Shown: positions 3,751-39,907, counted from the stretch's first letter. The stretch is 64,000 bases of DNA from an uncultured Gammaproteobacteria bacterium (GCA_964510885.1 CAZEDL010000003.1:31686-95685); one strand, 5' to 3'. The notes: a model not told the origin generated them from the sequence alone. Numbers and translations: made by a program.

Positions 3751-3778
3751 ACTGGCGCCGATGGCGTCGGTTTTTTAA
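3751..3778. terminator. Bidirectional intrinsic terminator (convergent EamA / elp3)
   Basis: aactggcgcc-gat-ggcgtcggtt forms a ~10-bp stem followed by TTTTTT. The reverse complement also ends in a T-run. Confidence 0.6.
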
Positions 3779-5403
3779 ATTAATTTTTTTACCATGTAGG
3801 TCTTATCTAGCTCATATTCCCATTTGCGATAGTAGCCCCGCACTCCAACACCCGAGATAACGGCGAGTTCAGGTACTTTATTTTTTCGACAGATATCTTC
3901 GGCAGCGGCCACTAATTTCTGGCCGAGACCTTTGTGTTGACTGTGTTCTTCACTCCGTTCACCCAAGTGCAGAAGCTGTCCATACGTGTGTAGTTCGCGA
4001 ATATAGGCTGGGAAGCGAACTTGTTCTTTCGCCAATTCTTCGGCATCCGGGCCGACAATGCGCAGGCGGCAGAACGCGAATACAATCTGGCGATCTTTAT
4101 CTTCAAAACTTAAAAAATATTCTGTACCGCCGCGCGTGGCATATTCATCGATGAATAATATGGGCGTTAAATCGGGGATGGTGCCGAGATCAACATGGCC
4201 AACTTCGCGGCACCGCAAACAGCGGCAGCGTTGTCCGATTTTTTTCAGCCGGTTTTGTACTACTTGGCGCAGGTTAGTTACTTTATTACCTTCTTCAATA
4301 TATTGGCCCGGGATATCGCGGATCAGGCGCGAAATGCGCGCGTAATAGGGAATGGTGGGTTTGAATTTGACTAAGATGTCGATTAGATCTTCGACTTCGT
4401 AGGCTTTATATTTTCCGGCAACAAACCAATCATAGAGCTCAGAATTTTTTACTACCGTGCAGGGATAGATTTTAATCATGTCGGGGCGGTATCCTGGGTC
4501 AGAAAAAATCGTTTGCATCATTTCTAAATCTGCTGCGGGGGTTGCCCCTGGCAGCTGAGGCATCAAGTGCGCATCAACTTTGAAACCGTAATTGCGCAAT
4601 TGTTCCATGGCGCGTTTGGCTTCGGCGCTGCCATGGCCGCGCTTGGTGAGTTTTAAAATATCGTCGTCGGTGTGTTGGATGCCCAGCTCAATACGGGTGC
4701 ATCCCATTTCGCGCATGTGCCAAATGGTGTGATAGTTGATGCAGTCGGGCCGCGTTTCGAGGGTGAGACCGATAATCCGGTGGGCGGCTGTTTCGTTAAT
4801 TGTCTGTTGTTCAAACAGAGCGGCCCGAAGTTGGTCGAGAGGTGAGTTTTCAGTCAGGGTAATTTTGGGGCCGCTGAGATCGTTGCACGCTTCAAACGAT
4901 TTGAGAATAAACCAATACTGGTATTGTAAAGTATACGAATTCCAGGTGCCGCCCTTGATGATAAATTCAATTTTGTCAGTCGGGTGGCCATTGTTTTCGA
5001 GTGCCTCAATGCGGCGGGCCATTTGTTCGTAGGGGTCGAATTGCAAGAGGAGCGCGCGCATGGCAGCCGGCTCTTCGGAGAGGTAGCTTTTTGGCATGCG
5101 CTCATCAAGGGGGCAATAGACACATTGGCCAGGGCACGGGTAAGGCTTGATGAGTGAGGTGATAACTGCTACGCCCGATAGGCTGCGGACGGCGCGGCGC
5201 ATTAGGATTTTTTCAAGTGCTGGGTTTTTTTCAACCTTGTTTTCCGCAACTAACCTGTGATATGCTGACAATAATTCAGTTTTATTAGGGAGGCTGGCGC
5301 TAGTATTTTTGCCTAATAATTCGCGTTTAAGCGCATTAAAATCAGCTTCTGAGCGGGGAAGATTCTGAGCCAGGCTAAGGATAATTTGGTCGGCGAGAGA
5401 CAT
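3775..5403 (-). CDS. elp3: Elongator Elp3 homologue (radical-SAM + GNAT tRNA U34 carboxymethyl/acetyl-transferase family)
   Basis: Radical-SAM CxxxCxxC (PCPGQCVYCP), the Elp3 Zn-Cys cluster (QRCRCLRC), and a C-terminal GNAT Q/RxxGxG motif (HKGLGQKL). Length ~540 aa. Start chosen at ATG 5403 (MSLADQI); the longer ORF begins at GTG 5421. Confidence 0.9.
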   Translation of the reverse strand: MSLADQIILSLAQNLPRSEADFNALKRELLGKNTSASLPNKTELLSAYHRLVAENKVEKNPALEKILMRRAVRSLSGVAVITSLIKPYPCPGQCVYCPLDERMPKSYLSEEPAAMRALLLQFDPYEQMARRIEALENNGHPTDKIEFIIKGGTWNSYTLQYQYWFILKSFEACNDLSGPKITLTENSPLDQLRAALFEQQTINETAAHRIIGLTLETRPDCINYHTIWHMREMGCTRIELGIQHTDDDILKLTKRGHGSAEAKRAMEQLRNYGFKVDAHLMPQLPGATPAADLEMMQTIFSDPGYRPDMIKIYPCTVVKNSELYDWFVAGKYKAYEVEDLIDILVKFKPTIPYYARISRLIRDIPGQYIEEGNKVTNLRQVVQNRLKKIGQRCRCLRCREVGHVDLGTIPDLTPILFIDEYATRGGTEYFLSFEDKDRQIVFAFCRLRIVGPDAEELAKEQVRFPAYIRELHTYGQLLHLGERSEEHSQHKGLGQKLVAAAEDICRKNKVPELAVISGVGVRGYYRKWEYELDKTYMVKKLI

Positions 5404-5429
5404 ATTTTTCACATTTTTCACATAACACG

Positions 5430-5455
5430 TAGCAGATTCAATTGTTACGTGTTAC
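5430..5455. promoter_or_regulatory. Repeat-containing divergent promoter region between elp3 and the Trm9-like gene
   Basis: AACACGT and three tandem copies of its reverse complement (GTTACGT GTTACGT GTTACGT) sit directly at the methyltransferase start. TTTTTCACA occurs twice at the elp3 start. Confidence 0.35.
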
Positions 5456-6166
5456 GTGTTACGTGCTATGGATTTGATTGCTAAAACTCGTGATGATTAT
5501 AATCGGATTGCACCCTATTTTTCGGGTACCCGGTATGCATTATGGCCAGAATTAAAGCAGTGTAAACAATATCTTACAAATGGTCAACGTATCCTTGATT
5601 GGGGCTGTGGTAATGGGCGGCTAACGTCGTTGTTCGAATCCCACCGTGAGATTGAATATTATGGCGTAGATCAGAGCGAAGAATTGCTCAAAATAGCAGC
5701 TCGGGAACATCCATATCAGGCCTCGTTTGGTACCGTGTCATTTATTTCAACGGCTGATGCGGCCAGCAATTTTGCGCCAGACTTTTTTGACCTAATTTTT
5801 TTAATCGCCTCGTTCCATCATTTACCTGATGAAGCGAGCCGGTTGTCGGTCTTAAAAAAAATGTATACGGAACTTAAAACAGGCGGTCGGATTATTATGA
5901 CGGTGTGGAATTTGGATAGTGATTGGGCAGATAATAAAAAGAAACAAGATTGGAAACAGATGGGTGAGCGGGATTTTTTGATTCCGTGGAAGAATCCGAA
6001 CGGCGAAGTACTGTGTGATCGATATTACCATTCGTTTGAAAAACAAGAGCTCCGGGCGCTGATTGAACAAGCTGGATTTGTGATTACAACTATGGAGTAT
6101 GGCGACGGTGAATGGACTGATAGTAAAGAAGGCCGGAATTTAATGTGTGTGGCTCAAAAGATATGA
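5456..6166 (+). CDS. Trm9-like class I SAM methyltransferase (tRNA mcm5U34 methyltransferase family)
   Basis: Collinear with yeast Trm9/ALKBH8 MT as I remember it: DYNRIAPYFSGTRYALWP ~ VYNEIAPHFSQTRYKPWP, DWGCGNGR ~ DVGCGNGK, FHHLPDEASRLSVLKKMYTELKTGGRIIMTVWN ~ VHHWSTRERRVEVIRHVLSKLRQGGQALIYCWA, and DFLIPW / RYYHSFEKQELRALIEQAG ~ RYYHLYREGELAEDCRQAG. Start is GTG 5456 or ATG 5468. Confidence 0.8.
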   Translation: MLRAMDLIAKTRDDYNRIAPYFSGTRYALWPELKQCKQYLTNGQRILDWGCGNGRLTSLFESHREIEYYGVDQSEELLKIAAREHPYQASFGTVSFISTADAASNFAPDFFDLIFLIASFHHLPDEASRLSVLKKMYTELKTGGRIIMTVWNLDSDWADNKKKQDWKQMGERDFLIPWKNPNGEVLCDRYYHSFEKQELRALIEQAGFVITTMEYGDGEWTDSKEGRNLMCVAQKI

Positions 6167-7380
6167 GAATTTTGCAAGCTAATAAATTTTTTTATCGCCG
6201 CGGTGGAGCAGAGGTGGTATTTTTTGATACGATTAATGGCCTCAGGAAGCGAGGCCATGACGTAGCCGAATTTTCCATGGAGTCGGCGCAAAATGTGCCG
6301 AGTGATTATGCACGGTATTTTGCCGAGCCCGTAGCGGAACTCTTGGCCGATAAGGATTGGGGGAGCGCGCTCAAGATTTTTAAGCGCTTATTTTATTCCA
6401 AGGACGTAGAACAGAAATTGAAGGCGTTGATTTTGGCCACGGAGCCAGAAGTGGCGCATCTGCATAATATTTATCATCATTTGTCAGCGAGTACCTTTTT
6501 GACCCTGCGCAAGCAGAAGGTGCCGATGGTAATGACTGTGCACGATGTGTTTCCGCTCTGCCCCAACCATAGTTTTTTATATCAGGGTCAACTGCGCGAA
6601 GATTTATTTAAGAAAAAATTATACAATTGCACGCGCTATCGTTGTATTGATGGTCGCTTCGGCCCAAGTCTAGCCGGGACACTCGAAGCTTATTACTATC
6701 GGTATCGCGGCGTGTGGGAGGCGATTAGTTTGTTTATCTGCCCTAGTCAATTTATGGCCGATAAACTGGTGGAGTATGGGTTCCCGGGTGCGAAAATGCG
6801 AGTGCTGCCCAATCCATTCCCGCTGGTAACAAATCCTCCAGTACTTGGCAGCTCAGTGGTATACCTCGGCCGCACGTATTATGAAAAAGGGGTTCGCGTA
6901 TTTATGGAAGCAGTGCGTGAGCTACGGGATTTTCCAGTGATCGTAGCTGGCAGTGGGCCGGAAGATAAATGGATTGAGCATTATATTCGCCAATATGGGC
7001 TAAATCAGGTGGAGCGACAACAGTGGGTGGAGGGCGAAGCTTGGCAGCAGGTGATGGCGCGGGCGCGGGTGGTGGTGTTGCCATCGATCGTATATGAAAA
7101 TTGTTCGCTGACGGTTCTTGAGGCGCTGAGTTACGGGCGGATTGTGGTAGGGGTGAAACTCGGGGGCACGCCGGAACTTATTATCAATGGGAAAACCGGT
7201 TGGTTGGCTGAAGCGGCTAATCCATCTGATTTGGCACGGGTGATTAAGCAGGCGATGAGTATGGCTCCGGCGGAGGCGGAACGAATGACGCAGGCGGGGC
7301 GGGAGCTGGTGAAGGCTAATCATGATTTAGATATTTATTTGGAGAAGTTAGAGGGGATTTATCGCGAAGTAATTATATAG
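6163..7380 (+). CDS. GT4-family glycosyltransferase
   Basis: GT-B N-terminal domain (MRILQANKFFYRRGGAE...) and C-terminal Glycos_transf_1 (EG...YENCSLTVLEALSYGRIVVG). The ATG overlaps the upstream stop as ATGA (6163-6166). Confidence 0.85.
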   Translation: MRILQANKFFYRRGGAEVVFFDTINGLRKRGHDVAEFSMESAQNVPSDYARYFAEPVAELLADKDWGSALKIFKRLFYSKDVEQKLKALILATEPEVAHLHNIYHHLSASTFLTLRKQKVPMVMTVHDVFPLCPNHSFLYQGQLREDLFKKKLYNCTRYRCIDGRFGPSLAGTLEAYYYRYRGVWEAISLFICPSQFMADKLVEYGFPGAKMRVLPNPFPLVTNPPVLGSSVVYLGRTYYEKGVRVFMEAVRELRDFPVIVAGSGPEDKWIEHYIRQYGLNQVERQQWVEGEAWQQVMARARVVVLPSIVYENCSLTVLEALSYGRIVVGVKLGGTPELIINGKTGWLAEAANPSDLARVIKQAMSMAPAEAERMTQAGRELVKANHDLDIYLEKLEGIYREVII

Positions 7381-10794: not shown

Positions 10795-10868
10795 GCACGC
10801 CTAGCTCAGTTGGTTAGAGCACCTCGTTTACACCGAGGGGGTCAGGGGTTCGAATCCCTTGGCGTGCA
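10795..10868 (+). tRNA. tRNA-Val (anticodon TAC)
   Basis: Cloverleaf read by eye: acceptor gcacgcc/ggcgtgc plus discriminator A, D-arm gctcagttggttagagc, anticodon stem cctcg/cgagg with loop ttTACac, T-arm aggggttcgaatccctt. CCA is not encoded. Confidence 0.9.
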
Positions 10869-10872
10869 CACT

Positions 10873-10901: not shown

Positions 10902-12140
10902 TTACTCGCCATCTGGAAATTCTTCCCACTTGCCGGTAACATCGCTCAAGAATTTAATAATTGGATACCGCTGTCCGGCTTTCTCTGCTGTGGTTTCGTA
11001 AAAATAATCGGTCATGGTATCTGGCACCAGTTGTTTACCGGTGTGATGCGATAATTCAAGGTGGGGGAGTTGGCCGCGGAATTCTGCAAATTTTTTTAGC
11101 CCCCGCATAACTTCTTGGGCGCGGCGCACCGAGGTGCGGAAATGTCCGGTGCGCGGAACGCTCATGGCGACTGACAGATAATGCAGTCGAACATTCTCGG
11201 TGCGGAGGCGGTGGAATAATGTGCGTAAGATAGTCGCATCATCGTTGATACCTTTTAGCAGCACAGTTTGGTTGTAGACGTGTAGTCCGGCTTGCTGCAG
11301 TGTGTGAATAGCGGTTATAGCATCCGGCCCTAGTTCATTCGGATGATTAAAGTGTGAGCCAATCTGAATTTCCACCCCGCGCGCTTTAGTTTGCCAACTG
11401 TGGGTTTGAATGGTGGCCAGCGCAGTGGCTAATTCGGGGGTGAGTCTAAAAGGGTTATGCAGGAAGCTGCGAGTATTAATACGGATAGTAGTGATCTGCG
11501 GAATGGCAGCGAGCGCACTGATACGGGCGACGAGAATTTCATCGGGCATGATAAGCGGGTCGCCACCGCTCACTAAAATTTGCCGAATGAGTGGAGCGGC
11601 AGAAATTTTTTCCACAGCCGCTTTGAATTCTTGGGGGCCGGCATTAGTTGGTACATCATGGCGCAGGGTGCGCTCTTTTTCAAAACAAAATCGGCAGAAA
11701 GAGTGGCAGGTATTTGATAGGCGCAAGACACAGATGTCCGGATATTTTTGTTGCAGCAGACGATTGGTGCCGTCGAGAAAATCAGCCGACTTTTCCCAGA
11801 CTTCATTAAATAAAAAATTGTCTGAAGCGCTTTCTTGTAGTGATGGTAGGTGCTGCAGAGCGATTGGATCATTTGGGTTAGTCCAGTCGATGAGGGAGAT
11901 AAGATAGGGGGTAAGGCGCATCTGATCGGCTCTGTTTCCATAACGGGTGGTACTGACGGCATCGATCGCTTGGGCTTGATCGCTCGGTAGCGGCACGAGG
12001 CGCGCCAGTTCAGTGCCCGAAGTGATGCAGTGAGTAAGCTGCCAGCGCCAAGATACCCAGTGGCTACTAGTCACGCCTCGGGCTTGGTAATAGGGTGGAA
12101 TAATTACTTCATTAGGCATATAAGTGATTCTTGGCACCAT
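10902..12140 (-). CDS. KamA-family radical-SAM aminomutase (lysine 2,3-aminomutase-like)
   Basis: Radical-SAM CxxxCxxC (SNTCHSFCRFCF), KamA-type N-terminal region (WQLTHCITSGTELARL...TPYLISLIDWTNPNDP), 412 aa. Confidence 0.8.
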   Translation of the reverse strand: MVPRITYMPNEVIIPPYYQARGVTSSHWVSWRWQLTHCITSGTELARLVPLPSDQAQAIDAVSTTRYGNRADQMRLTPYLISLIDWTNPNDPIALQHLPSLQESASDNFLFNEVWEKSADFLDGTNRLLQQKYPDICVLRLSNTCHSFCRFCFEKERTLRHDVPTNAGPQEFKAAVEKISAAPLIRQILVSGGDPLIMPDEILVARISALAAIPQITTIRINTRSFLHNPFRLTPELATALATIQTHSWQTKARGVEIQIGSHFNHPNELGPDAITAIHTLQQAGLHVYNQTVLLKGINDDATILRTLFHRLRTENVRLHYLSVAMSVPRTGHFRTSVRRAQEVMRGLKKFAEFRGQLPHLELSHHTGKQLVPDTMTDYFYETTAEKAGQRYPIIKFLSDVTGKWEEFPDGE

Positions 12141-13972: not shown

Positions 13973-14221
13973 GGGGATCCTCCACTATCATATGCCCATT
14001 GGGGCGGCCATATCATACGCTAAAAATCATATAATATCAAGGGGAGGCTTGAATTATCGTAGGTTTTACCGTATACTCGTTTCTAACGAGAGGGGTATTA
14101 TTTATTGCCATGAAATGGTGTTGGTTGCCTGCTGATTCATCGCTGTCGGTCGATGGTGCGATTATTGCCAGGCAACTTCCGGGCTTTTAGCCCCTGCTAT
14201 TTCTGGCATAACAAATTTTTT

Positions 14222-15370
14222 ATGGCTCAGAATTTTATTTTTACGTCGGAATCAGTGACCGAAGGTCATCCTGATAAAATTTGCGATCAGATTTCGGATG
14301 CCGTGCTTGATGCACTGTTAACTCAAGACAAGCATTCACATGTGGCGGTAGAATGTTTTACCACTACTGGCCTCGTGATCGTGGGTGGCGAAGTCACCAC
14401 GCGTGGGTATGTGGATGTGCAAAAGATTACGCGCGAGGTGATTGAATCGATCGGATACACTGATCCGGCCTACGGCATTGATGCGGAGCATGCCGGGATT
14501 TTGGTGTCGATTCATGAGCAGTCTCCAGATATTGCCCAGGGTGTTGATAAAAAAACGGTGGAACAGCAGGGGGCCGGGGATCAGGGTTTGATGTTTGGGT
14601 ATGCTTGCAATGAAACGCCGGATTTAATGCCTCTCCCGATCGATCTGTCGCATCGCTTGGCGCGCCGGCTTACCGAGGTGCGCAAGAAAGGTGTTATTCC
14701 GTATCTTCGGCCGGACGGAAAAACGCAGGTGGCAATCGAGTATGCTGATAATAAACCGGTACGACTTAAAAATGTGGTAGTGTCGGCGCAGCATCATCCG
14801 GAAATAAAAACGACGCAAATTCGCGCTGATATTATTAAGCACGTGATCGAGCCGGTATGTAAAGAATACCTCGATGCAAAAACTGAATTTTTTGTGAATA
14901 TGACCGGTCGCTTTGTGGTGGGTGGTCCGCAGGGTGATACTGGCTTAACTGGCCGCAAAATTATTGTTGATACGTATGGCGGTATGGGCCGACATGGGGG
15001 CGGCTGTTTCTCGGGAAAAGATCCATCGAAGGTGGACAGGAGCGGTGCCTATATGGCTCGCTATGTGGCCAAAAATATTGTGGCCGCGGGGCTCGCGGAG
15101 CGCTGCGAGGTGCAGGTGTCGTATGTGATTGGGAAAGCAGAGCCGACGAGTGTAGCGGTGAATACGTTTGGTACGGGCCGGGTGTCGGATGAAGAGTTGG
15201 TGCGCATCGTGACCAAGTTATTTGATTTCCGTCCGGGTAAGATTATCGAGCATTTGAAATTACTCCGCCCGATTTATCGCGCCACCTCGGCCTATGGCCA
15301 TTTTGGACGCCATGAATTTCCGTGGGAAAAGACGGATATGGTGAAAAAACTTAAGGCGGCGGCTAAATAA
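14222..15370 (+). CDS. metK: S-adenosylmethionine synthetase
   Basis: [31 protein letters not shown]..., [19 protein letters not shown]. Start at ATG 14222 within the longer ORF. Confidence 0.95.
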
Positions 15371-20443: not shown

Positions 20444-23400
20444 ATGCGCAGGCGATTAAGGATTTATATTAATTTTATTATGAATAAATTAGGAACGAAA
20501 ATCCTGAATTCCGTTGTAACGTTGGCCGTTACGGTGGTCTTCTCCGGTTTGAATCTCCTCGCGCCAGTAGCTGCTAACGCCGCTGTCTGTCCGACGCTCA
20601 ACCCTGGAGACATGATCAAAGTAACCGGCAAACCGGCTATTTATGTAGTCAACAACAATCTTCAGGTACAATATTTCCCAAGTGGATATGTATTCAAGAG
20701 CTGGCGCCCGACCTACGGTGGTTACACCTCCGTATCGATGGCTTGCTTTGATTCTTTGAATCTTCCAACCAACCCTCCATACGGCGTTAACTTTGCCCCA
20801 GGGTCCTATGTCATCAAGCGTCCGTCTTCGGATCAGCTTTATGTCGTTGAACCAGGCAACGTTAAAGCGAAGATCACCACTGAAGCTGCTAAAGCTCTCT
20901 ATGGTAACTTCTTCCAGCCGCAAGTAATCAATGATGAATTCTGGCCAAACTACCCAGTACTTGGTAACGATGTTACCGAAGCCAAACCATTCCCTGGTTT
21001 CCTCTTCAGCAACAAAGGCACCACTTGGTACATGGATGTAGATGGCAAAGCTCGTCAGGTTACTGCCACTGGCTTAACTGCTAATGGCTTCCAGACTGCT
21101 TTTGTCCACCCAGTGGCTGATGCAGTTGTAGCTGGTCTTCAGACCGGTGCTACGATTGATGCTGAAGTTAAATCGATCACCGACAAAACCCAGAGTGGTG
21201 GTGTCGCTGCTCCTTCTAACCCAAGCAACCCAAGCAACCCAAGCACTCCAGGCGGATCTTTGAGCGTTTCGCTCTCTTCCGACAACCCATTTGCTGCGAC
21301 TGTTGTTTCCGATTCTGGCACCAATGGTGCACAGGCTATGGTTCCAGTGTTGAAACTTAACTTCTCTGCTGACAACAGCGGTGATGTCAAAGTTACCACA
21401 TTGAGTTTGAAGCGCGCTGGCGTATCGGCTGATACTGATATTGCCAACATGTACCTTTATGATGATGCTGGTGTACGCTTAGCTGGTAACCCGAGTGTTG
21501 CTAACAATATTATTAGCTTCACCAACAGCTCTGGCCTCTTCACTGTCACCAAAGGCACCACGAAATCCGTTAAAGTCCTCTTGGACCTCAAGAACGCGGT
21601 TTCTGCAGGCAAGACCTTCCAGTTCGTTGTAGCTGACGCTGCAAGCGTTACTTCTAACGCCACTGGTTCGGTTGGCGGCACCTTCCCATTAACGGGTAAT
21701 GTGTTCACCACCGCTTCAGTTACTGATCTTGGTAAATTAACTGTTTCTAGCGTGTCCCCGTCTTCCAACACTACTGTTGATCCGGGCACCACTGGTTACG
21801 AAATTTGGAGACTCCAGGCTGTAAGCAGCAACCAGGATATTGAAGTCCGCAAGCTTGTTTTCACCATCGTTGGTTCTATCAACGTTGGCGATATTCAGAA
21901 CATCTCCCTCTGGGATGGTTCCAAGCAGCTTGGCGCCACTGTGGTTGACATGGCTGCAGACAAGACGGTCACTTTTGATCTCGCTGCTGCTCCATACGTA
22001 ATTACCAAAGGACAGACTAAAACCCTCAGCCTTAAAGCTGATATCAAAGGCGGCACTAACCGCAGCTTCCGCGCTTCTCTTCAGAATGGCAGCGATGTAG
22101 TTAGCTATGACAAAAACTACAATGTCTACCTGAAGACGAATGGTACGGACAGCTTCTCAATCGTTCAGCCAAATACCGCTGGTACCGCTGTTAACATTTC
22201 CGTTAACACCGGCACCTTGACGCAGACTTTGGCCGCGGATTCTCCGACCGGAAATATCGCTTTGAACGCTACGGGTGTAACGCTTGCACGCTTTGCGTGG
22301 CAGGCTAATGGTGAAGATATAAAAGTCAGCTCGCTGAACGTTTCATCCACCATTTCTTCAAGCCGCACTCTTACCAATGTACGCTTGATGGTTAACGATA
22401 ACCAAGTTGGTACGACTATCAGCACTTTGACCGGTAACGGCGTTTCCAACTCTGGTTGGGGCACCTTTGGCAACAGCTTCATCATTAAAGCTGGCACCAC
22501 GGCTAAAGTAGAAGTTAGAGCTGATCTGACTGGTTCTGCCGCCCTCAATGACACTGTCGTTGTTGGTCTCCCAGCTGGTTCAAGCAATGCTCAGGGTGTT
22601 GTATCTCTCAGCTCACTTAGCACTTCTGAAAAGAATGCTAACACGTTGACCGTTAAATCCGGTACGGTATCGGTATCTCTTGACACCTCTTTTGGTAACA
22701 AGACTGCCAGCAATCCGAACGGTACGATCAATGCTTCAGGAGCTAAAGTTGGTTCCTTCATTATCACCTCTGGTGCTGGTGAATTCGTTAAAGTCAGCGG
22801 AATTACGTTGACCGAAACTGCTTCCAACAACGGTTCGACCTGTGTTGGTAGCTATATGCAGAACTTGACGCTTAAGGATGCTGCAGGCAAGACTCTTGGT
22901 ACTGCCTATGCAAATCCGTCGGCTACTTGTTCTAGTGCTAATTCCTTCAACTTTACGTTCCCTGAGGTAACGATCGAAAAAGGTGCTCAGTATGTCGTTG
23001 GCGTCTACGCTGACCTCAAAGCTGCTTTCAGCACGGCTGCTACCTCTCTTATTAAAGTTGATGCCGTAACTGCTACGGGTGGTGACACTAATGGCACTGC
23101 CAGCGTATCTGGTCAGGCTTTGGCCCTCCAGTACAACTACATTTCGACTGCCGGTAACTTCACTGTTGCCACCGATTCCAACACTCCGGTTTCCCGCAAC
23201 TTGCTTATGGGTGCCGTAGATCAGGAACTTGGTCGCTTCAACATTACTGCCAGCACGACTGAAGCTATCAACATCACGGAACTTGTGCTCAGCAACCGCG
23301 TCAGCTCTGCTGCCACCGGTACGCTCCGCAACGTCCGTTTGTACGACAACGACAATGGCGCTCTCATCGGCTCTGCTGTCCCGTCGTTCACCAACACGAA

Positions 23401-24190
23401 CTCCAACGGCACCTTGGTGCACGCGGTGTTCAGCGGCCTGAAATTCCAGGTACCGAAAGGAAACTCCAAAGTCGTTATCGTTAAGGCTGACCTTACGACC
23501 TACGATGATTTGGGTTCCCCAGCTACCACTGGTCAGACTGCCAATCTTGCTATCTTGAAGAACTACACTGGTAGCACCCTGTCTATCACTGCTACTGGCG
23601 CTTCTTCCGGTGTATCTATCACCCCGACGGTGATCAACTCTGGTACGAATATCCCGGATATCACTGGTAACTTCGTGGCTTACACGAACACCAGCACGTT
23701 ATACCGCGCTAAACTTACCACTGCTTGGAGCACGGATACTCCGTCCGGTGCTGCTGGCGGATCAGCTTCCCAGATCGTAGGCAAATTCGTTATCACGAAC
23801 CTTGCTAACGCTGGTAACTACTCCGCTACTGTCCAGTCGATCAACTTCGACTTGTCGACCACGATCTCCAACACTGCTGACCGCGCTTTGACTGTCTATA
23901 AAGACTCCATTGCTACGGGCAACATCGTTGCGACGACCTCTTGGCTCGCTGCTGGTAACCAGAACTTCTCTGACACTGCGATTACTGATGCCGGTTTCAC
24001 CGATGTCAGCATCTCGTCTGGTCAGGCTAAGACTTTCTGGGTCACCTTGGACACCAGCAATGCCGCTTCTACGAAGAATCTTTCCATCCGCATTGGTTCG
24101 AGCGACGTATCTTGGACCGACGGTGTAAACAGTGGCCTCACTGTTATGGATCAGGATCTTCCGCTTCAATTCAGGACCTTCACCTACTAA
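20444..24190 (+). CDS. Giant secreted surface-layer-like protein (1248 aa) with Ig-like repeats
   Basis: Signal peptide (…LAVTVVFSGLNLLAPVAANA|AV), a PSNPSNPSNPSTP linker, and repeated ~100-aa units (…DIKVSSLNVSS…, …DIEVRKLVFTIVGS…). It is Thr/Ser/Asn/Gly/Val-rich. Codon usage is markedly biased toward ggt/gct/act/cgt/aac/ttc/tac, unlike the neighbours, which suggests very high expression. An alternative start lies at ATG 20480. Confidence 0.7.
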   Translation: MRRRLRIYINFIMNKLGTKILNSVVTLAVTVVFSGLNLLAPVAANAAVCPTLNPGDMIKVTGKPAIYVVNNNLQVQYFPSGYVFKSWRPTYGGYTSVSMACFDSLNLPTNPPYGVNFAPGSYVIKRPSSDQLYVVEPGNVKAKITTEAAKALYGNFFQPQVINDEFWPNYPVLGNDVTEAKPFPGFLFSNKGTTWYMDVDGKARQVTATGLTANGFQTAFVHPVADAVVAGLQTGATIDAEVKSITDKTQSGGVAAPSNPSNPSNPSTPGGSLSVSLSSDNPFAATVVSDSGTNGAQAMVPVLKLNFSADNSGDVKVTTLSLKRAGVSADTDIANMYLYDDAGVRLAGNPSVANNIISFTNSSGLFTVTKGTTKSVKVLLDLKNAVSAGKTFQFVVADAASVTSNATGSVGGTFPLTGNVFTTASVTDLGKLTVSSVSPSSNTTVDPGTTGYEIWRLQAVSSNQDIEVRKLVFTIVGSINVGDIQNISLWDGSKQLGATVVDMAADKTVTFDLAAAPYVITKGQTKTLSLKADIKGGTNRSFRASLQNGSDVVSYDKNYNVYLKTNGTDSFSIVQPNTAGTAVNISVNTGTLTQTLAADSPTGNIALNATGVTLARFAWQANGEDIKVSSLNVSSTISSSRTLTNVRLMVNDNQVGTTISTLTGNGVSNSGWGTFGNSFIIKAGTTAKVEVRADLTGSAALNDTVVVGLPAGSSNAQGVVSLSSLSTSEKNANTLTVKSGTVSVSLDTSFGNKTASNPNGTINASGAKVGSFIITSGAGEFVKVSGITLTETASNNGSTCVGSYMQNLTLKDAAGKTLGTAYANPSATCSSANSFNFTFPEVTIEKGAQYVVGVYADLKAAFSTAATSLIKVDAVTATGGDTNGTASVSGQALALQYNYISTAGNFTVATDSNTPVSRNLLMGAVDQELGRFNITASTTEAINITELVLSNRVSSAATGTLRNVRLYDNDNGALIGSAVPSFTNTNSNGTLVHAVFSGLKFQVPKGNSKVVIVKADLTTYDDLGSPATTGQTANLAILKNYTGSTLSITATGASSGVSITPTVINSGTNIPDITGNFVAYTNTSTLYRAKLTTAWSTDTPSGAAGGSASQIVGKFVITNLANAGNYSATVQSINFDLSTTISNTADRALTVYKDSIATGNIVATTSWLAAGNQNFSDTAITDAGFTDVSISSGQAKTFWVTLDTSNAASTKNLSIRIGSSDVSWTDGVNSGLTVMDQDLPLQFRTFTY

Positions 24191-35236: not shown

Positions 35237-35848
35237 ATGTTGACAGCCTGGGATCAATTTTTTCAAGATAAAATGAAACAGATTTTCACACCTGGGAAAA
35301 CGGTGATTGATATTGGCGGCGGACTCCGGGTTGATGCGAAGCGCAACAACCGGGAATCCGAAGCCCCGGCGTGGCTGGCGGAGTATATTAAACAAGTGGA
35401 TTATAAAATTTTAGATAAAGTGCCGGATTATCATCCAGATATTGTGGGGGATATTCACGCGCTGCCGTTTGCTGATAGTAGTGTCGACGCGATTGTGTGT
35501 ATTGCCGTGCTAGAGCATGTGGAGGAGCCGGCAAAAGCGGTGGCCGAAGTATATCGGGTATTGAAGCCGGGCGGCCAGGCATTTTTTTATGCGCCATTTC
35601 TGTTCTATTATCATCCGCTCAAGGGGTATTACAAAGATTTTTTCCGCTTCACGAGTGATGGCTGGCGATATCTGACCCGCCATTTTAAGATAGTAGAGCT
35701 TCAGAATGTGCGCGGAGCGCTCGCCACGGTGCTTAATTTATTTCCATGGTTGTCGAAGCGAACACGGTTTGTAGATGTAATTGATCGTTTGTTCCATAAA
35801 GATGCGAGCGAACAAACCAGTGGATATAATGTGTTTTGCGTAAAATAA
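35237..35848 (+). CDS. Class I SAM-dependent methyltransferase (Methyltransf_11-like)
   Basis: VIDIGGG..., DIHALPFADSSVDAIVCIAVLEHVEEP, VLKPGGQAFFY. Confidence 0.7.
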   Translation: MLTAWDQFFQDKMKQIFTPGKTVIDIGGGLRVDAKRNNRESEAPAWLAEYIKQVDYKILDKVPDYHPDIVGDIHALPFADSSVDAIVCIAVLEHVEEPAKAVAEVYRVLKPGGQAFFYAPFLFYYHPLKGYYKDFFRFTSDGWRYLTRHFKIVELQNVRGALATVLNLFPWLSKRTRFVDVIDRLFHKDASEQTSGYNVFCVK

Positions 35849-39061: not shown

Positions 39062-39907
39062 ATGCCAGAGCAGTCCTTGCAAACTCGCATTCAAGCTTGG
39101 TGGAATGATAATCCGTTTATTTATAGTTTTGAAAAAACAGAGCCAGATCTGACTCCTCATTTTTTCGCCGAGATCAACCGCAAATTTATCAAATGGACGC
39201 CCTGGACACAAACTGACGACCGACCTCTCTCGGGAGTGATTGATTTTACAGCTTTGAAAGGTAAACGCGTGCTTGATATTGCAATCGGTACTGGCTGGAG
39301 CACCGAGCGATTCGTGCGCGCTGGAGCAGTGGCAACCGGCCTTGATTTAACGCCCAAGGCCATTGAGATTTCTAAGGTCCGCTTTAAACAAGCTGGGTTG
39401 CCTGAGCCAGAATTGATAGTTGGTGATGCCCAGCATTTGCCCTTTGCCGAGGGAACTTTTGATTTTGTACTGGCGTGGGGCTGCCTCATGCATATGCCAG
39501 ATACGCAGCAAGCGATTAATGAAATTCATCGCGTGCTGAAACCGGGTGGTAAAGCGGCTGCCATGATGTACAACAAACATTCGCTTCACTGGTGGTATTA
39601 CATTTTTTTAAGCAAAGGAATTTTACGCGGCAAGCTGTTGTCAATGAGTCGACAGGAATTGAGCAATCGCTATACAGATGGCGTATACCAGGGCGGTAAT
39701 CAGTTAACTAAGTTTTTCAGTTCGAATGAAGTAGGTGAGTTGTTTAAAAAATTCACTTCTTGCCAAGTGTCGGTGCATGATACCACCACCCCGATTGATC
39801 ATTTTCCGCACCGCCGGTTGCCGCTCGGGAGTTTGTTGCCGCGGCGTTGGCGCGAATATCTCGCGACTAAATTTGGCCAAAGTTTATGGATACAGGTAAC
39901 TAAATAA
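39062..39907 (+). CDS. Class I SAM-dependent methyltransferase
   Basis: VLDIAIGTGWST, GDAQHLPFAEGTFDFV, VLKPGGKAAAMMYN. Confidence 0.75.
   Translation: MPEQSLQTRIQAWWNDNPFIYSFEKTEPDLTPHFFAEINRKFIKWTPWTQTDDRPLSGVIDFTALKGKRVLDIAIGTGWSTERFVRAGAVATGLDLTPKAIEISKVRFKQAGLPEPELIVGDAQHLPFAEGTFDFVLAWGCLMHMPDTQQAINEIHRVLKPGGKAAAMMYNKHSLHWWYYIFLSKGILRGKLLSMSRQELSNRYTDGVYQGGNQLTKFFSSNEVGELFKKFTSCQVSVHDTTTPIDHFPHRRLPLGSLLPRRWREYLATKFGQSLWIQVTK

Follow-up and report, generated by a model that had tools for sequence, protein, structure and literature searches.

A head-to-head gene pair for Elp3 and a Trm9-like methyltransferase in Patescibacteria, and a predicted route to tRNA wobble uridine modification

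Does a bacterium that carries an Elp3 gene beside a gene for a Trm9-like methyltransferase modify the wobble uridine (U34) of its tRNA as eukaryotes and archaea do? Textbooks and recent reviews credit the 5-methyluridine derivatives found at this position in bacteria (xm5U34) to MnmE and MnmG, and treat bacterial Elp3 as a Dehalococcoides oddity. A 2020 review placed bacterial Elp3 in Dehalococcoides only (PMC7663514), and a 2017 review of Trm112 stated that no bacterial genes resembling Trm112-dependent methyltransferases were detectable (PMC5372719). The question is raised by a stretch of 64,000 nucleotides deposited as DNA of an uncultured Gammaproteobacteria bacterium (GCA_964510885.1, CAZEDL010000003.1:31686-95685), which we analysed over its whole length and refer to as the window. 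Two divergent genes lie head-to-head in it, elp3 on the minus strand and a gene for a Trm9-like methyltransferase on the plus strand, and an earlier reading made from the sequence alone (the sequence-only reading) had picked them out as a module for 5-methoxycarbonylmethyluridine at position 34 (mcm5U34). Here we report that the pair recurs in a wide range of Patescibacteria and in Dehalococcoidia, and we propose that its two products would act in succession on U34. Both enzymes and the pathway are of kinds already known; the novelty lies in finding them systematically, and tightly linked, in bacteria.

Identity of the two proteins

The longest open reading frame (ORF) of elp3 occupies 3775..5421 on the minus strand and reaches a GTG at 5421. 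It matches the NCBIfam model TIGR01211, named Elp3, at 523.4 bits against a cut-off of 350, with residues 22-547 covering positions 11-522 of the 522 in the model, and in Pfam it hits Radical_SAM and Radical_SAM_C, with only the GNAT model, taken alone, sub-threshold (18.1 vs 20.7 bits). From the N-termini of homologues we placed the start at the ATG at 5403, which gives a protein of 542 aa, a predicted radical-SAM/GNAT tRNA U34 5-carboxymethyluridine (cm5U) synthase (3775..5403, minus strand). Its closest relative of solved structure is the Elp3 of Dehalococcoides mccartyi (DmcElp3; 377 bits, E 1.6e-111), next to that of Methanocaldococcus infernus (E 1.3e-110), and the yeast and mouse proteins follow at about 1e-88.

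The full Elp3 architecture claimed in the sequence-only reading was borne out by translation and alignment. The motif CPGQCVYC (5113..5136, minus strand) supplies the radical-SAM cysteines of the [4Fe-4S] cluster; it aligns with C23, C27 and C30 of DmcElp3 and is invariant across 12 bacterial Elp3 sequences. The zinc-site cysteines, CRCLRC, lie between the two domains (4210..4227, minus strand) and were located by alignment to DmcElp3 and the same 12 sequences; such cysteines are kept in prokaryotic Elp3 and missing from eukaryotic Elp3 (PMC6367351). The acetyl-coenzyme A (CoA) site of the KAT domain (3823..4002, minus strand) is made up of IRELHTYG, with the equivalents of DmcElp3 E386 and H388, the CoA motif QHKGLG (3922-3939) and GYYRK, with the equivalent of Y441. 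Two further motifs on the same strand, HPTDK (4972-4986) and FKVDAH (4567-4584), hold the equivalents of K77 and K193. K77, K193, E386 and Y441 are the key DmcElp3 residues singled out in an earlier study (PMC6367351), so that with H388 and the two cysteine clusters none of these catalytic residues is missing from the window protein.

DmcElp3 is the reference bacterial Elp3 (PDB 5L7J, 5L7L and 6IA6), and it shares its cluster, zinc and CoA-site residues with the window protein. The difference between them is at the N-terminus, where the window Elp3 carries about 73 residues beyond DmcElp3 that are conserved in its relatives and covered by TIGR01211. In archaeal Elp3 the N-terminal extension is required for tRNA binding. 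DmcElp3 binds tRNA weakly and has very weak activity, and the missing extension has been put forward as one explanation of the latter (PMC7663514, PMC6367351). Judged by its sequence, the minus-strand ORF is thus confirmed as a full-length Elp3.

For the methyltransferase, the longest ORF runs from 5456 to 6166 on the plus strand, and homologues support the ATG at 5468, giving 232 aa, the same length as an identical database protein (P0001). We annotate the gene (5468..6166, plus strand) as encoding a class I S-adenosylmethionine (SAM)-dependent methyltransferase of the Trm9 type, predicted to convert cm5U34 of tRNA to mcm5U34; the annotation draws on matches to solved structures, on profile searches and on the linkage to Elp3. 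Affinity to Trm9 was recovered by searches in both directions, in a comparison that covered solved structures and fungal Trm9. Queried singly against 177,635 sequences of solved structures, the window protein found Yarrowia lipolytica Trm9 (5cm2_Z) as its best match (62 bits, E 4.7e-16; runner-up 36 bits), in an alignment that spans the TRY box to the C-terminus. A family profile of 29 sequences again placed Trm9 first, at 85 bits (E 3e-23) against 69 for the next. Foldseek against the PDB, using an AlphaFold model with a Rossmann-type fold (pLDDT 88.7), also returned 5cm2_Z at the top (E 2e-14, TM 0.80 on the target), with small margins because the fold is generic.

The reverse search was specific. 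A hidden Markov model (HMM) built from 60 fungal Trm9 sequences scored the window protein at 97 bits (E 1e-29), and the other Methyltransf_11 genes of the window, at 35237-35848 and 39062-39907, at 21.6 and 18.0 bits, despite their higher scores with the Pfam Methyltransf_11 model. The same HMM gave 23 bits to 3sm3 of Methanosarcina mazei, the second-best solved match. Pfam itself assigns the window protein only generic families such as Methyltransf_11, 23, 25 and 31, the first at 53.6 bits. As a control we ran authentic Yarrowia Trm9, which returns the same picture, so these matches are uninformative rather than negative for Trm9.

Other identities were tried and rejected. NCBIfam equivalog models all match far below their cut-offs and only over the Rossmann core, at about residues 37-150: UbiE at 35 vs 216 bits, UbiG at 31.5 vs 103, BioC at 35.5 vs 185, and CpaM, the best of them, at 51.5 vs 180. 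The protein therefore falls outside the groups of ubiquinone and small-molecule methyltransferases. CmoM, another U34 enzyme, reaches 18.9 vs 366 bits with its NCBIfam model, and in the family-profile search the solved CmoM 8joz_A scored 24 bits vs 85 for Trm9.

The residues tell the same story in finer detail. The N- and C-terminal boxes that the sequence-only reading had compared with Trm9/ALKBH8 were both read by translation: YNRIAPYFSGTRYALWP at 5498..5548 (plus strand), which holds Y11 and R22 (Saccharomyces cerevisiae Trm9, ScTrm9, Y18 and R29), and RYYH...EL from 6020. The first box is followed by the SAM-binding motif I, LDWGCGNG, with the acidic D68 (ScTrm9 D72; 5594..5672), and a stretch with substrate-binding and catalytic residues (5816..6139) that comprises H117 and H118 (ScTrm9 H115 and H116), W147 (W145), W174 (W168), R185 and Y187 within RYYH (R241 and Y243) and N224 (N271). 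Letoquart et al. found that exchange of ScTrm9 R29, D72, H116, W145, W168, R241, Y243 or N271 for alanine abolishes or strongly lowers activity; Y18 and H115 have also been implicated, and R29 is proposed to bind the carboxylate of cm5U (PMC4678810). In a MAFFT alignment all ten positions of the window protein (Y11, R22, D68, H117, H118, W147, W174, R185, Y187 and N224) are identical to Yarrowia Trm9, whereas 3sm3 lacks six of the ten. The ten residues are conserved across 150 representatives of the bacterial family; in ScTrm9 numbering, R29 is kept in 147, H116 in 148, W145 in 149, W168 in 133, R241 in 146, Y243 in 103 and N271 in 137. An extra loop of about 10 residues precedes the strand that carries N224. 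Taken together, these comparisons support the plus-strand ORF as a Trm9-type class I SAM methyltransferase.

Most members of this family are annotated as "class I SAM-dependent methyltransferase" or "UbiE". A scan of its longer members for informative fusions yielded only a methyltransferase joined to a C-terminal NUDIX hydrolase domain (n=2, P0139 and P0182), which was uninformative.

Linkage of the two genes across bacterial genomes

The two start codons of the window pair are 64 bp apart, ATG to ATG, within the 50-65 bp of the sequence-only reading, and the longest ORFs are separated by 34 bp. Relatives of the methyltransferase were collected by scanning one genome per GTDB species, which gave 80 loci labelled Magasanik-, Komeili-, Pacei-/Parcu- and Peribacteria, many of them in metagenome-assembled genomes (MAGs) that bear evidently wrong placeholder names. 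In 78 of these 80 loci the gene immediately upstream, on the opposite strand, encodes Elp3; in the remaining two the contig stops less than 100 bp from the methyltransferase gene. Within Magasanikbacteria the wider neighbourhood is syntenic as well. When the 13 loci that diverge most are compared, however, they have no genes in common other than those for Elp3 and the methyltransferase, so the linkage between the two is specific.

The converse test started from Elp3. Among 80 metagenomic Elp3 loci, 6 have no upstream sequence and 74 could be evaluated; with the neighbour sought within 3 kb, the methyltransferase gene was upstream and divergent in 59, nearly all at 350 bp or less, and downstream in one, that is, in 60 of the 74. 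This recurrence from both sides (78/80 and 60/74) rules out chance adjacency. The methyltransferase family comprises 604 clusters at 50% identity (E<=1e-30), and the module is widespread in Patescibacteria, where it is common rather than rare.

The pair is also found in Chloroflexota. In D. mccartyi (CP019867.1, L085) a gene for a class I methyltransferase of 224 aa lies 43 bp upstream of Elp3 in divergent orientation, and the same arrangement is present in a second Dehalococcoidia genome (L086) and in a further contig (L088); L087 holds a methyltransferase fragment at the contig end. These proteins are 31% identical to the window methyltransferase, keep the FRH, HH, VWN, PW, RYY and RN motifs, and score 55-66 bits with the fungal Trm9 HMM (65 for Dehalococcoides, against 97 for the window protein). 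The pair is thus a general feature of Elp3-bearing bacteria and is not peculiar to the window. As for other genes near these loci, Elp3 in L087 is followed by MetK and S-adenosylhomocysteine hydrolase (4071-6527), and in two Dehalococcoidia genomes QueH, an epoxyqueuosine reductase that likewise acts on tRNA position 34, and a GNAT acetyltransferase are encoded about 1-2 kb from the pair (L085:5140-6406, L086:4767-5859).

These results bear on how new the module is. The sequence-only reading had presented it as rare, which did not hold given its spread in Patescibacteria and its presence beside Elp3 of D. mccartyi. It had also stated that an Elp3-Trm9 pair is not a described bacterial operon. 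In the literature searched we found no paper that describes a bacterial Elp3-Trm9 pair or links Elp3 or Trm9 with Patescibacteria, although Glatt 2016 and Selvadurai 2014 might mention the Dehalococcoides neighbour, and to this extent the statement stands. It falls short in that "TRM9" and [quoted passage not shown] already appear as names of family members in a few database records, and PGAP names the Elp3s, which counts against novelty. We regard the family membership of both proteins, the conservation of their catalytic residues and the tight, phylogenetically broad linkage of their genes as established.

A predicted two-step pathway and its rivals

From these features we infer the chemical product, the tRNA substrates and the possible independence from Trm112, and we consider it probable that the pair constitutes a two-step pathway in which Elp3 makes cm5U34 and the methyltransferase converts it to mcm5U34, possibly without Trm112. 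Elp3 would bind tRNA through its extended N-terminus and central cleft, and its [4Fe-4S]/SAM site would use acetyl-CoA to put a carboxymethyl group on C5 of U34, yielding cm5U34. The divergently encoded Trm9-type enzyme would then transfer a methyl group from SAM onto the carboxylate, yielding mcm5U34, and the head-to-head layout, in which 0-64 bp separate the start codons in most genomes, would link the expression of both steps. There is precedent for this chemistry in archaea, where Trm9-Trm112 of Haloferax produces mcm5U and the genes for Elp3 and Trm9 are clustered in Sulfolobus solfataricus (PMC6144793, PMC2584109). As a description of the pathway, the label "eukaryote/archaea-type" is apt; as a statement of demonstrated origin it is not.

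Several observations weigh against this proposal. The window methyltransferase is only 27% identical to Yarrowia Trm9, the curated libraries Pfam and NCBIfam yield generic methyltransferase matches alone, and for the Dehalococcoides neighbour Trm9 ranks only seventh among solved structures. Fourteen of the 74 evaluable metagenomic Elp3 loci and the Chloroflexota locus L089 have no methyltransferase gene nearby, so the coupling is not obligatory. No Trm112-like ORF was found in the 64-kb window, nor do distant loci share a third gene next to the pair. Lastly, according to the 2020 review, direct evidence of 5-carboxymethyluridine derivatives at position 34 (xcm5U34) in Elp3-bearing bacteria is lacking (PMC7663514).

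The alternative that survives best keeps the pathway and its product, with the methyltransferase, as in eukaryotes and Haloferax, active only when bound to a zinc-knuckle protein of the Trm112 kind whose gene lies in another part of the genome. All characterised Trm9 enzymes require Trm112, bacteria commonly have short Trm112 homologues without an assigned function (PMC5372719), and of the 150 family representatives 130 retain the equivalent of the Trm112-interface residue F116 and 127 that of D117. Set against this are the missing third gene in distant loci and the searches of the window, where three small ORFs were negative for Trm112 in Pfam and none of the 15 intergenic ORFs of 35-130 aa, inspected by eye, had a CPxC zinc-knuckle N-terminus. 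Furthermore, two hydrophobic Trm112 contacts of Yarrowia Trm9 are charged or polar in the bacterial family: 92 of 150 representatives have K or R in place of V59, and F78 is replaced mostly by E, D, K, S or N. These substitutions hint that the bacterial methyltransferase is independent of Trm112, and we hold dependence on a distant partner to be possible but rather unlikely.

A second alternative, to which we give still less weight and which we consider improbable, is that the methyltransferase does act with Elp3 on tRNA, with a product other than the mcm5U ester, through a different Elp3-derived intermediate or position. Haloferax without Trm9 accumulates no cm5U and shows unidentified related species instead, from which it follows that xcm5U chemistry varies between lineages; the low identity to Trm9 and the loop inserted ahead of the N224 strand would also fit a changed product. 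The window protein nevertheless keeps every residue that, in the Trm9 model, holds the carboxylate and the uracil ring in place (R29, H115/H116, W145, R241, Y243 and N271), which argues for the same ester.

That the protein is a generic small-molecule or quinone methyltransferase, beside Elp3 by inherited synteny without functional meaning, is very improbable: the UbiE-like and generic library matches and the syntenic Magasanikbacteria neighbourhood would suit this explanation, but the NCBIfam matches cover the core only, the generic Pfam matches are shared by authentic Trm9, the two genes stay together in loci whose other flanking genes are all different and also in Chloroflexota, the Trm9-specific residues are conserved, and the reverse search with the fungal HMM was specific.

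We thus return to mcm5U34 synthesis by Elp3 and the Trm9-type enzyme as the preferred reading, and several known systems put it in perspective. The eukaryotic route to mcm5U34 and mcm5s2U34 (the 2-thio form), by Elongator and Trm9-Trm112 (ALKBH8-TRMT112 in mammals), relies on the same two catalytic proteins and a chemistry like the one predicted here. In contrast to it, the bacterial pair comes without Elp1, Elp2 and Elp4-6, Elp3 being stand-alone as in archaea; the window Elp3 retains the prokaryote-type zinc cysteines that eukaryotic Elp3 lacks; the methyltransferase has no Trm112 partner seen in the window, carries charged or polar residues at two hydrophobic contact positions, and lacks the RRM and AlkB domains of ALKBH8; and the bacterial genes are physically coupled head-to-head. 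The archaeal systems (HVO_1032 of Haloferax volcanii, the S. solfataricus cluster) likewise have a stand-alone, N-terminally extended Elp3 paired with a Trm9 orthologue. There, mcm5U and Trm112 dependence have been demonstrated by experiment in Haloferax; the window pair belongs to a bacterial host, a member of the Patescibacteria. MnmE-MnmG, with MnmC, makes 5-carboxymethylaminomethyluridine and 5-methylaminomethyluridine (cmnm5U and mnm5U34) and has the same target, C5 of U34, and the same decoding role, but its enzymes, a GTPase and an FAD enzyme, are unrelated and the side chain is another. CmoM of Gram-negative bacteria, which turns 5-carboxymethoxyuridine (cmo5U) into its methyl ester (mcmo5U), is likewise of the class I SAM methyltransferases and acts by esterifying the carboxyl of a U34 side chain; it belongs to a different family, and its partners are CmoA and CmoB, not Elp3.

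Gene neighbourhood and wider meaning

The 64 bp between the start codons of the window pair (5404..5467) contain three tandem copies of TTACGTG (5445-5465) and an inverted partner, ACACGTA (5425-5431). TTACGTG has no other copy in the 64 kb, and this array could be an operator for a shared regulator; the repeat was not found in the Elp3/methyltransferase spacers of related loci. A scan of the spacer for promoters and terminators gave sites only within coding sequence. The head-to-head geometry of the pair is unusually tight and conserved: in many relatives (L006, L007, L009, L079 and others) the start codons abut, as in L007 (CAT|ATG), overlap, as in L079 (a shared CATG), or are 10-25 bp apart, which implies promoters inside the partner's coding sequence or leaderless mRNAs. 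In some loci the spacer holds palindromic insertions of about 60-160 bp that resemble miniature inverted-repeat transposable elements (L005:4160-4321; L010 and L024, at about 5940-6000).

On its other side, the methyltransferase stop codon overlaps the start of a GT4 glycosyltransferase gene (ATGA, 6163-6166), suggesting that the methyltransferase may be co-transcribed and translationally coupled with an envelope-glycosylation gene; many Magasanikbacteria loci likewise have a GT4 gene directly after that of the methyltransferase. The neighbours in the window are ordinary bacterial genes, namely those for SHMT, ThiE, EamA transporters, GT4 glycosyltransferases, MetK and an ECF sigma factor. MetK, the SAM synthetase (14153-15370, plus strand), is encoded 8 kb from the pair, both enzymes of which consume SAM. 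A tRNA-Val(UAC) gene, whose product has U34, lies at 10795-10869 (plus strand) and adjoins an ORF of 412 aa (10902-12140, minus strand) with Radical_SAM (44 bits) as its sole Pfam match.

Further along, an ORF of 1248 aa without a Pfam match (20444-24190, plus strand) coincides with the only reversal of GC skew in the window (-0.04 to -0.11), the plus strand elsewhere having an unusually high positive skew (+0.10 to +0.24) regardless of gene orientation. The remainder, 24315-64000, is a large envelope-polysaccharide cluster with two Wzy_C/TPR proteins, several GT4 and GT2-like genes, an epimerase/dehydratase, an AsnB-type amidotransferase, a carbamoyltransferase and the two further Methyltransf_11 genes. 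The names on the closest homologues and loci place the host within the Patescibacteria (candidate phyla radiation), near Magasanikbacteria. The same Patescibacteria-type locus occurs in many MAGs deposited as "uncultured Gammaproteobacteria bacterium" (L005, L006, L009-L011 and others) and under "Candidatus Udaeobacter" in one case (titles including that of L030). Because these loci share Magasanikbacteria synteny, such titles are probably placeholder names or binning errors.

At the level of annotation, the finding corrects the entries of family members now named "class I SAM-dependent methyltransferase" or "UbiE". A Trm9-type enzyme tightly coupled to Elp3 in many uncultivated bacteria and in the cultivable D. 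mccartyi predicts mcm5U in bacterial tRNA. With only two genes, the pair would be a simple means of rebuilding the pathway in E. coli, and structural studies with tRNA may gain from the bacterial methyltransferase a Trm9 that is by nature independent of Trm112. The finding also bears on whether the Elp3 pathway is older than the split of the domains.

Both mnmE and mnmG are missing from the 64-kb window, which is a fraction of the genome, and no paper pairing MnmG with Patescibacteria was found in the literature searched. We offer it as a tentative idea, more doubtful than the pathway itself, that the Dehalococcoidia and much of the Patescibacteria (Magasanik-, Komeili-, Pacei- and Peribacteria at the least) might decode with mcm5U34-type wobble uridines, for which a stand-alone Elp3 and a Trm9 that does without Trm112 would replace MnmE/MnmG. 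If this is true, the xcm5U pathway, supposedly archaeal and eukaryotic, would be normal in a sizeable fraction of bacterial diversity, and either ancestral or anciently transferred.

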